Origin: an uncultured Acidobacteriota bacterium
GTDB taxonomy: Bacteria; Acidobacteriota; Vicinamibacteria; Vicinamibacterales; SCN-69-37
NCBI GenBank assembly: GCA_963730095.1
Contig: CAVSQJ010000002.1
Coordinates: 1,923,779 to 1,987,778 of the forward strand
Direction: 5' to 3'
DNA length: 64,000 nt
This document shows positions 2,761-62,940 of the stretch, piece after piece. A model generated the notes under the pieces. It saw only the letters and a list, made by a program, of their open reading frames with translations, was not told the DNA's origin and ran no database searches. The translations under genes were made by a program, and so were the position numbers. Positions within the stretch are counted from its first letter, which is position 1. Every line of letters starts with the position of its first letter.

Positions 2761-2849
2761 GTGAAGTTCGAAGTATGAAGTTCGAAGTCGCGGAGTGCCA
2801 CGCGGGCAATCTGAACTTCAAATTTCGAACTTCTAACTTCGAACTTAAC
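2761..2849. repeat. heptamer tandem-repeat hairpin (GAAGTYN arm / complementary AACTTC arm)
   Basis: Left arm 2761-2790 reads GAAGTTC GAAGTAT GAAGTTC GAAGTCG. Right arm 2811-2849 reads TCGAACT TCTAACT TCGAACT. Fills the rpsK-rpsD spacer and is lower in GC than its surroundings. Confidence 0.85.
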
Positions 2850-2867
2850 GAGCGATAGAGGTAACGA

Positions 2868-3498
2868 ATGGCAAGGTATATCGGACCGGTGTGCCGGCTC
2901 TGCCGGCGCGAGGGCATGAAGCTCTTCCTCAAGGGCGAGCGGTGCTACACGGACAAGTGCGCGATTGAGAAGCGCAACGTGCCGCCCGGCCAGCACGGCC
3001 GCGCGCGCAAGGCGAAGATGGTCGGCTACGGCGTGCAGCTGCGCGAGAAGCAGAAGGTCAAGCGCACCTACGGCGTCCTCGAGAACCAGTTCCGCCGCTA
3101 CTTCGAGGCGGCCGATCGGACCAAGGGCATCACGGGCGAGCTGCTGCTGCAGATGCTCGAGCGCCGGCTGGACAACGTGGTCTACCGGCTCGGGTTCGCG
3201 ACGTCGCGGCCGCAGGCGCGGCAGCTCGTGCGCCACGGGCACTTCACGGTCAACGGCAGGAAGGTCGACATCCCGTCCTACTCGGTGCGGCATGGGCGAC
3301 GTCGTCGCCGTGCGCGCGTCGAGCGGGGAGAACCCGACGATCCAGCACGCGACCGAAGAGGTGAAGGGCCGCGGCGTCCCCGAGTGGCTCTCGCTCGAGC
3401 CGGCCGGGCTCTCGGGCCGCGTCGCGGCGCTCCCGACGCGCGAGCAGATCAATCTGCCCGTGCAGGAACAGCTCATTGTGGAGTTGTATTCCAAGTAG
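2868..3498 (+). CDS. rpsD: 30S ribosomal protein S4 (frame broken by one surplus nt at ~3291-3296)
   Basis: N-terminal part is in ORF 2868-3593 ([26 protein letters not shown]...IPSYSVR). C-terminal part is in ORF 2965-3498 ([10 protein letters not shown]...[11 protein letters not shown]). The span is 631 nt, i.e. 210 codons plus 1 nt. Confidence 0.9.
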
Positions 3499-3520
3499 AA
3501 ACTTCTAACTTTTCTTCTCC
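3499..3520. repeat. single-arm AACTTC-type short repeat
   Basis: AAACTTCTAACTTTTCTTCTCC lies directly after the rpsD stop. Same unit family as 2811-2849 and 54171-54210. Confidence 0.6.
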
Positions 3521-3592
3521 GTCGTCGGCCCGCAGCCCTCAGACCTGCGGCGGGAGGCCGGCGACGTATTCAGCAGGTCTGATCTCGCTGTA

Positions 3593-3612
3593 GCTCGCGC
3601 GAAAGCGCGAGC
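3593..3612 (+). other. perfect 8-bp GNRA-capped hairpin in the rpoA 5' leader
   Basis: GCTCGCGC-GAAA-GCGCGAGC, 30 nt upstream of the rpoA ATG. Function unknown. Confidence 0.35.
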
Positions 3613-3642
3613 GAAGGCGGATGAATCGAAAGGACGTTCGCG

Positions 3643-4623
3643 ATGTTGTGGAAGGGTTTTCAGCGGCCGAAGCGGCTGGAGTTCGAGCGGGAGACATTGA
3701 ACGAGCGGTTCGGGCGCTTCTACGCGCAGCCGTTCGAGCGGGGTTTCGGCACGACGGTCGGCAACGCCATGCGGCGCGTGCTGCTGTCGTCGATTGAGGG
3801 CGCCGCGGTGACCGCGGTGAAGATCGAGGGCGTGCTCCACGAGTTCTCGCCGATCCAGGGCGTCGTCGAGGACGCGACCGACATCATCCTCAACCTCAAG
3901 CAGATTCCGATCCTGGTGCACACCGATCAGCCGAAGACGCTGACGCTGCGGGCGACGAAGCCCGGCGAGGTGCGCGCGCGCGACATCTCGGCCGACGCCG
4001 ACCTCGAGATCCTCGAGCCGGACGCCCACATCGCCACTGTGAGCGACGGCGGCAAGCTCGAGATGGAGCTGCGCATCAAGCGCGGCCGCGGCTACGTCTC
4101 GGCGGACCGCAACTTCGACGAGGACCTCGGCATCGGCTGGATTCCGATCGACTCGGTCCACTCGCCCGTGAAGAAGGTCAACTACGTCGTCGACGCGGCG
4201 CGCATCGGCCAGACGACCGACTACGACAAGCTGACGCTCGAGGTGTGGACGAACGGCGCCGTCTCGCCGCGCGACGCCGTGTCGCTCGCGGCCAAGCTGA
4301 TTCGCGACCACTTCACGATCTTCGTCGGGCTCGACGAAGCGGCCGATCAGCCGCTCGACGCGGCCGGCGACGTTCCGACCTCCGGTCTGAACGAGAACCT
4401 CGACAAGAGCGTCGAGGAGCTCGAGCTCTCCGTGCGGTCCTACAACTGTCTGAAGAACGCGAACATCCGGACGATTCGCGAGCTCGTGCAGAAGAGCGAA
4501 GGTGAGATGCTCAAGACCAAGAACTTCGGCCGCAAGTCGCTGAATGAGATCAAAGACATTCTCGCGACGATGGGGCTGAGCCTCGGCATGCGCCTCGATC
4601 AGCCGATGGCGGATGGGGTCTGA
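3643..4623 (+). CDS. rpoA: DNA-directed RNA polymerase subunit alpha
   Basis: 326-aa ORF. N-terminal domain reads ...[23 protein letters not shown].... C-terminal domain reads ...[23 protein letters not shown]...[11 protein letters not shown]. Confidence 0.97.
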
Positions 4624-60223: not shown

Positions 60224-60279
60224 TCACCTGACGCGGAACGCAACGCGACGTGCGGCTGACGAGCCCACGAACACGCGGT

Positions 60280-60483
60280 TTACGCGCGCGGCCGTGTCGA
60301 GACGACGGCGCCCGGGGAGTGCGCGTGGTTCCGCTTGCCGCAGTACGGACAGAAGTACTCGTTGTAGGTCAGGTAGCCCCAGAAGCCTTGCAGCCCGGCG
60401 CACTCGAGCTCCAGCGCGCGGTGACACGCGCCGCACGCCGCCTCGACGACCACGTGCGACGGGGCCGTGAGGGTCACGCTCAT
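60280..60483 (-). CDS. 67-aa zinc-ribbon-like protein, function unknown
   Basis: Contains CGAC...C...CPYC and shows high GC3. Its ATG overlaps the stop of the SPFH gene (ATGA). Confidence 0.6.
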
Positions 60484-61298
60484 GACGTCGCCGGCCGCGC
60501 GGCCGAGGGCGGCTGAGGAAGCGCGGCGCCGCCGAACGCCGTACGCAGGCCACCGAGCAAATCGATCGGCAGGGGAAAGACAATCGTCGTGTTCTTCTCG
60601 GTGCCGATCTCGATCAGCGTCTGAAGGTAACGAAGCGTGATCGCGGCCGGCTCGCGGTCGAGCACCGCCGCCGCCTGCGCCAGCTTCTCGGACGCCTGAA
60701 ATTCGCCCTCGGCCGCGATGATCTTCGCCCGGCGCTCGCGCTCGGCCTCGGCCTGTTTCGCGATCGCCCGCTGCATCTCCTGCGGCAGATCGACCTGCTT
60801 GACCTGCACCTGCGTCACCTTCACGCCCCACGCCTCGGTGTGTTCGTCGAGGATCGTCTGCAGCCGCGCATTGAGTTTTTCCCGCTGCGACAGCAGGTCG
60901 TCGAGCTCGACCTCACCGAGCACCGAGCGCAGACTCGTCTGGGCCGCCTGCTCGACGGCGTAGCGATACGCTTCCACCTCGATGATCGCGCGCGTGGCGT
61001 TGAACACGTGGAAGTAGACGACGGCGTTCACTTTCAGCGACACGTTGTCGCGAGTGATGACGTCCTGCGGTGGCACGTCCCACGTCACGACGCGCAGCGA
61101 GACCCTGACGATCTTGTCAATCGGCCACAGGATGAGCACGAGCCCGGGGCCCTTCTCTTTCTTGAGCACCCGGCCCAGGCGAAAGACCACCGCCCGCTCG
61201 TACTCGCGGAGGATGTTGAGGCACCGGACAATCCAGATGAGAAACAGAAAAAGGACGAGCCCAGCCGTCGGCAGCAGTGTCGTCGTGATGGCGTCCAT
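60480..61298 (-). CDS. SPFH/Band-7 (stomatin-like) membrane protein
   Basis: 272 aa with an N-terminal TM, then ...[12 protein letters not shown]...[16 protein letters not shown]...[16 protein letters not shown].... Confidence 0.92.
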
Positions 61299-61405
61299 TT
61301 CTCATCCAGCGTAGCGGGGCTTCCGGTTCGAAGCTGTGCAAGAGAGCACAGGCGGCTGGCGGCCCGATCCGGCATCGCGGCCGGGCCCGCGCGTCGGGTG
61401 GACGT

Positions 61406-62824
61406 TTAGCGATCGACGACCGACGCGACCAGGTCGTACCCCTTCGCGCCGGTGACCCGGACCGAGACCATCTGGCCTGACGCGAGCGTCGCCGGGTCGC
61501 AGTCGGAGAGGTACACGACGGCGTCGATGTCGGGCGCCTGGCCCTCGAGGCGGCCCTGCAGGACGAGCGGCGATTCGGGCGACGGGCCGTCGACCAGCAC
61601 GCGGACCGTCTCGCCGAGCCGAGTCTTGTGCTTGCGCGCGACGATGTGCTTCTGCAGGCGCATCACGCGGTCGCGGCGCGCGGCCTTGACGCCGGCCGGG
61701 ACGTCGTCGTCCAGCGCGTGCGCGCGGGTGCCTTCCTCGTGCGAGTACGTGAACACGCCGACGTGATCGAACTCGGTGGCGCGGACGAAATCGAGGAGCG
61801 CCTCGACGTCCTGCTCGGTCTCGCCGGGGAAGCCGACGATGAACGTCGTGCGAAGCGTCACGCCGGGCACGCGCGCGCGGATGCGCGCGAGCAGTTTGTC
61901 GTACGTTTCGCGATTCCCGGGCCTACGCATGCGACGGAGCACCTCGGCCGACGCGTGCTGCAGCGGCAGGTCGACGTACTTGCACACCTTCTCGCACTCC
62001 GCCATCGCGTCGAGGACGTCGTCGGTGATCGTCGTTGGGTAGAGGTAGAGCAGGCGGATCCACTCGAGGCCGTCGACGTCGTTGAGGCGGCGGAGCAGCC
62101 GGGCCAGCGCACCGCGCTCGCCGCGATCGATCCCGAAGAACGTCGTGTCCTGCGAAATCAACAGCAGCTCGCGCACGCCCTGTGCCGCCAGGCGCTCGGC
62201 CTCGACGACGATCGAATCCTCGTCGCGGCTGCGGTACGAGCCGCGCAGCGTCGGGATGATGCAGAACGCGCACGTGTAGTCACAGCCCTCCGCGACCTTC
62301 ACGTACGCGTAATGGCGCGGGGTCGTCAGCAGACGCGGAGTGCTGGCGTCGTAAAGATAGGTTGGTTCCGGAGGGTTCCCAGGGGTTCCTGGGGGTTCCA
62401 TTGGGTTCCGGTTCGCCTGCTTCAGCTCAGCGCGGGACTTGAAGAGCTGAAGGGGCGCCGCCGTTGAGCGAGCGGCTGTCGATCCGCCGATCGCGCCGAC
62501 GATTTCTGGCACCTCGCCTGTGCCCAGCACGACGTCGATCTCGGGAATCTCGGCCTTGAGCTGATCGCGATACCGCTCCGCCAGGCAGCCCGTGACGATG
62601 AGCCTGCGGCATGCGCCGTCGCGCTTGAGCTGCGCCATCTCGAGGATGGCGTTGATCGACTCCTCCTTGGCCTTGTCGATGAACGCGCAGGTGTTGACGA
62701 CGATCGCGTCAGCCTTCGTCGGCGTCGGCCGTGATCTCGTGCCCCGCGTCGCGCGCGAGACCGAGCATCACCTCGCCATCGACGAGGTTCTTGGGACAAC
62801 CGAGGGAGACGAAGCCTAGTTTCA
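61406..62824 (-). CDS. rimO: ribosomal protein S12 methylthiotransferase RimO; compensating frame breaks (~62712 surplus nt, ~62640 missing nt)
   Basis: The N-terminus MKLGFVSLGCPKNLVDGEVMLG...ADADE is in the same frame as ORF 61406-62638 (radical SAM CDYTCAFC, TRAM). The conserved ADAIVVNTCAFIDKAKEESINAIL between them is in another frame, with an in-frame TGA. Confidence 0.9.
62360..62416. repeat. degenerate GGGTTCC (GGAACCC on the sense strand) short tandem repeat inside rimO
   Basis: GGTTGGTTCC GGAGGGTTCCC AGGGGTTCCT GGGGGTTCCA TTGGGTTCC GGTTC. It encodes NRNPMEPPGTPGNPPEP, an in-frame insertion. Confidence 0.8.
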
Positions 62825-62850
62825 TGTGAAAAGCACGCGTCCGCGAAGGA

Positions 62851-62940
62851 TCAAGTTTGAAGTTCGACGTTCGAAGTCAGAAAGGCAGAGTGACGGCGTG
62901 CTGTCCGAACTTCATCCTTCGAACTTCGACCTTCAAACTT
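62851..62940. repeat. GAAGTYN heptamer hairpin in the asnS-rimO spacer
   Basis: Left arm CAAGTTTGAAGTTCGACGTTCGAAGTCAG (62851-79). The reverse complement of the right arm (62904-62940) is CAAGTTTGAAGGTCGAAGTTCGAAGGATGAAGTTCGG. Confidence 0.9.

Follow-up and report, generated by a model that had tools for sequence, protein, structure and literature searches.

Heptamer repeat arrays and hairpins past stop codons in the intergenic spacers of Vicinamibacterales

Why do the spacers of a GC-rich bacterial genome, including those inside conserved core operons, hold short tandem repeats whose unit differs from one spacer to the next? The question is raised by a 64,000-nucleotide stretch from an uncultured Acidobacteriota bacterium of the Vicinamibacterales lineage SCN-69-37 (assembly GCA_963730095.1, contig CAVSQJ010000002.1, positions 1,923,779 to 1,987,778), hereafter the window, with a G+C content of about 67%. 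Its spacers contain 14 arrays with units of 7, 8, 9 or 14 nucleotides (nt), eight of them accompanied by a second array whose unit is the complement. In the window and its relatives, such arrays most often form the two arms of a hairpin that begins a few nt past a stop codon, and they are made and remodeled fast at the DNA level, with unit, copy number and presence shifting between relatives. The explanation that we favor, and consider probable without being secure, is that the stems of ordinary stem-loops past stop codons grow by slippage, with template switching, and that the hairpin rather than the unit is the functional part.

Distribution and placement of the arrays

Relatives were sampled as 80 syntenic loci (designated by L numbers) found by protein search with the 1249-aa SMC protein of the window (38074-41823; Pfam); nearly all are annotated as Vicinamibacterales or Acidobacteriota metagenome-assembled genomes (MAGs), with protein identities of 47-90%. 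A gene map based on codon usage covered the window and 79 usable loci (1.56 Mb in total, 13.4% non-coding), from which 750 spacers were taken for the census. In the window itself, arrays were called with Tandem Repeats Finder (TRF, score at least 30) together with direct reading of the sequence. The 750 spacers contained 116 period-7 arrays against 1.8 in dinucleotide shuffles, and arrays of period 8 (31 versus 1.0) and period 9 (20 versus 0.5) were also in excess. Among the relatives, period-7 arrays of at least three copies numbered 114 in non-coding and 32 in coding DNA, a 23-fold non-coding enrichment (p = 6e-70); one half of those in coding DNA are situated at the ends of genes, and within genes periods 3, 6 and 9 dominate. 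The same class in the window comprised ten arrays outside called genes and one inside, though genes cover 88% of the sequence, and this eleventh array (62906-62940) falls in an asnS reading frame that runs through a hairpin. The comparison of spacer with coding density proposed in the initial annotation, a reading of the window made from its sequence alone, thus upheld the intergenic bias and showed that it extends beyond the window.

A second, independent sample consisted of metagenome contigs found through TruB. Close contigs (at least 60% identity; 22 contigs, 85 kb) held 16 period-7 arrays, whereas distant contigs of equal G+C content (65.6%; 58 contigs, 465 kb) held 7, mostly GC-rich and coding-like, so that arrays are about 12-fold sparser outside the clade at a matching G+C content. 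Because the TruB contigs replicate the excess in close relatives only, the arrays are a trait of the Vicinamibacterales clade, neither specific to the window nor general to high-GC DNA.

A reverse-complement match within 400 nt was found for 97 of 173 non-coding arrays (56%), whereas control matches to the reversed, complemented and direct sequences numbered 1, 15 and 8. The 61 paired elements fall mainly in co-directional spacers (49), as the initial annotation had supposed for arrays in general, with 7 in convergent and 3 in divergent spacers. Divergent spacers hold only 7 of 130 arrays, singles included, versus 22% expected from their length (p = 2e-7). Within co-directional spacers the paired element begins a median of 5 nt past the upstream stop (34/49 within 10 nt), a distance that is exact, and ends a median of 74 nt ahead of the next start (13/49 within 10 nt), a distance that depends on approximate start-codon calls. 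The G-richer arm is the 5' arm in 36 of 48 paired elements (p = 7e-4). As this order is seen whichever DNA strand carries the gene (18/28 and 18/20), it follows transcription and not replication.

Pfam matches place rpsM-rpsK-rpsD-rpoA-rplQ on the plus strand of the window and rimP-nusA-infB-DUF503-rbfA-nrnA-truB-rpsO-pnp on the minus strand (56309 down to 46033, with infB at 51429-54130); asnS and rimO are also on the minus strand. They agree with the array neighbors named in the initial annotation (rpsK/rpsD, nusA/infB, infB/DUF503, nrnA/truB, rpsO/pnp and asnS/rimO). The spacer arrays of 7- to 14-nt units that it described are real, as judged by TRF and direct reading; most of its loci stood, and 3499-3520 and 37803-37870 proved weak. 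Where it had counted at least seven loci with a complementary second array, we found eight. In the list that follows, z scores compare the free energy of the spacer fold with those of dinucleotide shuffles, a check that the initial annotation had suggested.

2758-2849, plus strand: paired hairpin in the rpsK/rpsD spacer, GAAGTTC (about 3.7 copies) then GAACTTC (about 4.9 copies; TRF 2758-2846); fold of 2755-2852, -40.4 kcal/mol, z -5.8
3499-3520, plus strand: weak single array directly 3' of the rpsD stop, about 3 degenerate AACTTCT-like copies; TRF score below 30
5251-5287, plus strand: single purine-rich array, AAGTTAG, 4.6 copies, 3 nt past the rplQ stop (TRF 5252-5283); unstructured, z -1.3
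9062-9299, minus strand: 240-nt near-perfect hairpin 3' of an EF-G-like gene, with 9-mer arms around a palindromic core, CATGAAGGA (3.8 copies) and its complement (3.9 copies; TRF 9062-9109, 9263-9299); fold of 9055-9305, -170.8 kcal/mol, z -17.1
11440-11508, minus strand: paired hairpin of AATCGGC and GCCGATT units directly past the stop of a MacB-like permease gene (TRF 11478-11508); fold of 11438-11510, -50.1 kcal/mol, z -7.8
37803-37870, plus strand: short paired element, GGCAATG-type then TTGCCCC units, overlapping the S41 peptidase stop; no TRF report; fold no better than shuffles, z -0.3
37912-37990, plus strand: single 8-mer array, GAAGTCGA, 9.6 copies, upstream of smc (TRF 37912-37988); z -1.1
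41825-42176, plus strand: element occupying the entire smc/M48 peptidase spacer (TRF 41825-41862 with 42131-42176); arm of GGGCTTAAGGCTTA (2.7 copies) beginning 1 nt past the smc stop, 268-nt unique core, complementary arms of AGCCCCA (4.6 copies) and AAGCCTT (2.7 copies) reaching the M48 ATG; fold of 41822-42180, -171.9 kcal/mol, z -5.2
45858-46026, minus strand: paired element with unequal arms 3' of pnp, about 4 GGTGATT-type units against a 14-mer in 7.7 copies (TRF 14-mer 45858-46024); fold of 45850-46034, z -3.2
48262-48293, minus strand: single array in the rpsO/pnp spacer, CCCTCTG / CCCTTTG, about 3 copies, C-rich on the mRNA (TRF 48274-48293)
49602-49660, minus strand: single unstructured array, CCCATCG, 8.3 copies, C-rich on the mRNA and reaching the truB ATG (TRF 49602-49659); z +1.7
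51343-51421, minus strand: paired hairpin filling the infB/DUF503 spacer, (GAAGTCGA)n then (TCGACTTC)n (TRF 51343-51420); fold of 51340-51424, z -4.3
54171-54210, minus strand: single array of purine-rich GAAGTTN units (4.9 copies) upstream of infB, overlapping the nusA stop (TRF 54174-54207); z -1.4
62851-62940, minus strand: paired hairpin in the asnS/rimO spacer with GAAGTTC-type arms (TRF 62906-62944); fold of 62848-62943, -39.3 kcal/mol, z -5.6

Seven of the eight paired loci thus fold far better than shuffles (z -3.2 to -17.1), and the five clear single arrays are unstructured (z -1.4 to +1.7). The orthologue of the weak pair at 37803-37870 is a clearer pair in L001 (396-474).

Turnover of units and the origin of the arrays

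The 124 period-7 arrays comprise 87 distinct units, which bears out the claim that the unit is locus-specific; a loose GAAGT-type family nevertheless recurs. Orthologous spacers retain arrays while the unit changes. Thus 3' of pnp the window has GGGAGATGGCCGAT, L002 has about 25 copies of GGYGATT against about 15 of the complementary unit, and L003 has GGTAATT / ATTACCC; L001, L002 and L003 all carry arrays there with units other than that of the window. More than 12 unrelated units occur 3' of smc, where some species have plain GC hairpins instead. This diversity argues against a periodic, sequence-specific binding protein. We consider it very unlikely that the arrays are periodic sites for such a DNA- or RNA-binding protein, or that they act as G-quadruplex or i-motif formers, roles put forward for the repeats of Xanthomonas and Nostoc: 87 units in 124 arrays provide no common motif, units such as GAAGTTC, AAGTCGA and GGCTTAA are unable to form G-quadruplexes, and orthologous spacers differ in unit. 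What speaks for these possibilities is that the G-tract units GGGAGAT and GGGAATCT (L003) resemble the published GGGAATC and GGGGAYT, and that the GAAGT-type family recurs.

Copy number and presence vary as well. Among relatives with 81-86% TruB identity, the nrnA/truB array has 8, 3 or 4.5 copies or none, and the rpsO/pnp array has 6.4 (L082), 3.9 (L084), 2.9 or, in L001, about 0 copies. Identical-protein contigs, searched for strain-level variation in copy number, amounted to a single one of 1.3 kb without DNA. The infB/DUF503 array has an orthologue in L001, and L003 has no spacer there. A comparison of orthologous spacers, which the initial annotation had recommended, therefore gave a mixed answer, with arrays kept at some sites, variable in copy number, and absent at others. 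Arm lengths can be unequal, as with the 25 versus 15 units in L002 or, in the window, the 14-mer in 7.7 copies versus about 4 units.

In some relatives the smc gene itself carries heptamer arrays, read in frame within an acidic, variable linker of SMC that lies about 650-700 nt ahead of the stop codon (L031 6359-6437; L055 13141-13256; L045 9177-9214; L029 13015-13050). They include one 17-copy array and one inverted pair, and the window equivalent (about 41060-41170) is a low-complexity Ala/Pro/Glu stretch. Because arrays sit in frame within this linker, the generating process must be mutational and active wherever it is tolerated. Slippage-prone neutral DNA, one of the options raised in the initial annotation, accordingly holds as far as the generating process is concerned; its neutrality is weighed below.

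The 353-nt element at 41824-42176 is missing from the closest relative, L001, in which the smc/M48 spacer measures only 51 nt, and the window assembly has several frameshifts; both could be taken to indicate mobile elements resembling miniature inverted-repeat transposable elements (MITEs) or repetitive extragenic palindromic (REP) sequences, or else assembly artefacts. We find this hardly credible. BLAST detected no second copy of the hairpin cores at 9110-9262 and 41863-42130 in the window and L001-L080, the arms are specific to each locus, and similar arrays recur in numerous metagenomes and assemblies obtained independently from short or long reads. With cores that are unique and arms that differ at every locus, a mobile element of the REP, bacterial interspersed mosaic element (BIME) or MITE kind was rejected.

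Post-stop hairpins and their possible roles

The initial annotation had remarked that no array is followed by a U-tract and that ordinary terminators do not explain the arrays. We found no U-tract enrichment 3' of the 3' arms: the mean number of T residues per 10 nt was 2.55 in sense versus 2.90 in antisense orientation, and at least 5 T in the 10 nt past the 3' arm occurred in 4 elements in sense versus 6 in antisense. Canonical intrinsic terminators were rejected on this ground. The remark about U-tracts fails at 5251-5287, where a canonical terminator follows the array at 5302-5340, with a 13-bp GC stem and the T-rich tail TCTGTTTTTT (5302-5330); it was the one strong canonical terminator in a scan of positions 1-20000 and is separate from the adjoining array. 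Rfam gave no family at gathering score anywhere in the window, with chance-level matches only around 37780-38110.

Stop codons without arrays are also followed by structure. The 60 nt past them fold more stably than shuffles by 3.05 kcal/mol, and 29% versus 11% reach -25 kcal/mol or lower, whereas the 60 nt ahead of start codons differ from shuffles by only -0.4 kcal/mol and are not more structured. Because array-free post-stop DNA is structured, the niche for a post-stop hairpin exists independently and the arrays occupy it.

According to the explanation that we favor, the functional object would be a stem-loop past the stop codon in the transcript, distinct from a canonical terminator. It may block 3' exonucleases or, between cistrons, influence the processing or stability of the mRNA. 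The repeat texture would be mainly a by-product, with replication slippage, probably together with template switching between the arms, lengthening and homogenizing the stems, and the unit sequence itself would carry no specific signal. Enterobacterial REP elements, and stem-loops that protect Rho-dependent 3' ends, offer an analogy for these roles. REP and BIME hairpins are extragenic, lie soon after stops inside operons and stabilize upstream mRNA against 3' exonucleases. The likeness in post-stop, intra-operon placement is one of function only: REPs are a conserved palindrome family spread by RAYT transposase, whereas the hairpins described here share no sequence and are built from local tandems.

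Several observations weigh against this explanation. The 76 single arrays are mostly unstructured and are left unexplained by a hairpin model. The sense fold is the more stable one in 26 elements and the antisense fold in 22, with 107 versus 91 G-U pairs; with the two folds equally stable, this comparison gave no signal of selection on the RNA strand. Free loss of arrays between close relatives fits a purely mutational origin, and for the inverted pair inside the SMC coding region, which fits mutational pairing, a role at a 3' end is implausible. Array counts pool orthologous spacers and are therefore incompletely independent, and start-codon calls are approximate. Finally, the putative role of the hairpins at RNA 3' ends or between cistrons is one that we infer purely from DNA.

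A fully neutral origin is a serious rival, even if we regard it as doubtful on present evidence. A replication or repair quirk of the lineage would yield heptamer slippage and template-switch inverted duplication, and the arrays and hairpins would be neutral or selfish by-products, inert and persisting where selection tolerates them, 3' of genes and in disordered protein linkers. Such an origin would accommodate the fast turnover with loss among close relatives, the unrelated units at one and the same spacer, the strongly differing arm lengths, the lack of a sense-strand stability advantage, and the arrays and inverted pair inside the SMC coding sequence; the roughly 12-fold lower density outside the clade at equal GC points to a lineage-specific mutational cause. 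Tolerance alone, however, would not be expected to produce the tight placement at a median of 5 nt past stops, nor a G-rich arm that comes first along transcription on both DNA strands, and post-stop sites are structured in general and hold non-repeat hairpins in other species.

The placement of some arrays next to start codons brings in a further possibility, namely that the repeat texture itself is selected, with slippage-tunable stems setting operon polarity, translational coupling or Rho shielding, and single C-rich arrays serving as Rho-loading or leader elements. The elements at 41825-42176 and 51343-51421 span their spacers from stop to start, and the 13 of 49 paired elements that end within 10 nt of the next start would suit such a role. 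A G-rich arm transcribed first might hide the C-rich arm from Rho, and on the mRNA the single arrays at 49602-49660 and 48262-48293 are unstructured, rich in C and poor in G. Nevertheless, we consider selection on texture quite unlikely: single arrays across the data set follow no composition or position rule (such as being C-rich before starts), and close relatives dispense with arrays.

The boldest reading, also unlikely in our view, is that Vicinamibacterales use slippage-built, stop-flush hairpins as a genome-wide, self-renewing system for tuning expression. Protection of mRNA 3' ends, operon polarity or the access of Rho would depend on the stems, and changes in unit number would rapidly and heritably adjust expression ratios within core operons, among them rpsK-rpsD and nusA-infB-rbfA-truB-rpsO-pnp. 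If true, this would be the first demonstrated function for heptamer repeats, which are said to have gone unexplained since reports of cyanobacterial short tandemly repeated repetitive (STRR) sequences around 1990.

Related repeats and neighboring observations

The initial annotation had taken such repeats to be undescribed outside cyanobacteria and in high-GC genomes, and their paired arms to be undescribed altogether; reports from Xanthomonas and Geobacter contradict both claims. Two Xanthomonas genomes hold 186 and 183 GGGAATC heptamer arrays, 89-93% of them intergenic and on average 28 nt from the upstream open reading frame (ORF), with 70-75 convergent inverted pairs; length and sequence differ between species at the same spacers (Rehm et al. 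2015, PMC4692102). The likeness is close. Both sets of repeats have 7-nt units in high-GC genomes, are mainly intergenic, and lie mostly in co-directional spacers near the 3' end of the upstream ORF and rarely in divergent ones. In both, the G-rich strand coincides with the coding strand past the ORF, and arrays at shared spacers differ from species to species in length as well as sequence; most Xanthomonas arrays are likewise convergent inverted pairs able to form stem-loops. Xanthomonas, however, has essentially one unit family (GGGANTN), capable of forming G-quadruplexes, whereas Vicinamibacterales, from another phylum (Acidobacteriota), has dozens of unrelated units, many of them quadruplex-incapable. 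The single G-tract consensus in at least four units that defines the Xanthomonas/Nostoc G-quadruplex class does not describe the arrays of the window lineage.

Heptanucleotides are the commonest long simple-sequence repeats in most repeat-rich genomes, including Burkholderia and Xanthomonas (Mrazek et al. 2007, as cited in PMC4679880), and polymerase slippage was proposed as the source of repeats with 5-11 nt units (Mrazek, Guo and Shah 2007, as cited in PMC4679880 and PMC4692102). As far as these accounts of the survey go, our arrays share its heptamer dominance, lineage-specific distribution, exclusion from coding DNA of units that are not a multiple of 3, and slippage as the proposed source; those summaries do not describe Vicinamibacterales or the stop-flush hairpin arrangement. 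An excess of 5-11 nt tandems, intergenic bias, inverted pairs and interspecies variation, the features of the Mrazek/Xanthomonas type, were all found here. The arrays are thus heptanucleotide-class simple-sequence repeats, here as a trait of a Vicinamibacterales (Acidobacteriota) lineage.

Other known systems differ more. The cyanobacterial STRR sequences and the Nostoc GGGGAYT and TTTTGAA repeats are also spacer heptamers, at times within operons and with suspected regulatory or structural roles (PMC4692102; bioRxiv 10.1101/2022.06.06.494920), but they reuse a few fixed units genome-wide in low-GC filamentous hosts, in contrast to the locus-specific units found here at 67% G+C. With a Vicinamibacterales host and locus-specific units, our arrays fall outside the STRR class of few fixed units in heterocystous cyanobacteria. 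Geobacter metallireducens has tandem heptanucleotide elements, including strand-switching paired sites (Aklujkar et al. 2009, PMC2700814); like ours, these elements, of four or five tandem heptamers, lie between and within genes and some are paired, whereas they form multicopy families with consensus sequences (GGACCGG; MTYCTGA) read as global-regulator sites and no consensus exists here (PMC2700814). Heptamer satellites occur in Chloroflexus and Burkholderia as well. Our literature searches on Acidobacteria found no report of such repeats. The kind of repeat is therefore already known; what is new is the lineage, the extreme diversity of units and the quantified stop-flush, transcription-oriented placement.

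Heptamer repeats have long been noticed in several bacterial phyla and remain functionally unexplained. Vicinamibacterales adds a case in which the sequence of the unit is clearly irrelevant. Because stop-flush position, transcription orientation and arm complementarity recur, hypotheses narrow to the level of structure, away from binding sites and G-quadruplexes, and conserved core operons with natural copy-number variants provide test beds. In practical terms, the arrays inflate reading frames, confound gene callers and are hotspots of MAG assembly error. The asnS frame is an example: as assembled it runs about 30 codons beyond the usual ...IPYPR... C-terminus through both hairpin arms (62851-62961) until a TGA that closes the 3' arm; either the protein is truly extended at its C-terminus, or an indel in the assembly masks the actual stop.

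Several essential genes of the window are split by frameshifts (2868-3498; 9304-11403; 46033-48253; 51429-54130; 62638-62824). The rpsD gene has its MARYIGP start in one frame and its ELYSK* end in another, the EF-G-like gene lies in three ORFs, pnp and infB each consist of two overlapping ORFs, and rimO has an in-frame TGA near 62712. Since core genes show a frameshift roughly every 10 kb, indels of a long-read assembly are likelier than pseudogenes.

Upstream of smc (37848-38083) there is a conserved promoter-like TTGCCC-17 nt-TAGACT, followed about 190 nt on by a conserved hairpin and then UUUGUGUGU. These elements are also found at L001 1268-1321, L002 9755-9809 and L003 9958-10007, and in L004, L021 and L083. 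The promoter-hairpin unit may represent a small RNA or a leader at which transcription terminates, and the candidate RNA matched no Rfam family. The 8-mer array at 37912-37988 lies inside this putative RNA in the window and L001, not in L002. In L001 (1330-1490) and L002 (9830-9995) the stretch from the hairpin to the smc start carries two copies of a GC-rich motif, GGGGAGCCCGCAGGGGCGCAGCCCCTCGGAC, of roughly 35 nt, which the window lacks.

The rimP/nusA spacer (55590-55722) contains a 67-nt unit in tandem duplicate (95% identity), a 37-nt piece of which recurs in the same sense orientation at the rpoA/rplQ junction (4616-4652, 89% identity). These repeats are a second, unrelated intercistronic repeat family. 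The rimO coding region itself holds a 10-nt repeat, GGTTCCGGGG-like, in 4.8 copies (62364-62411).

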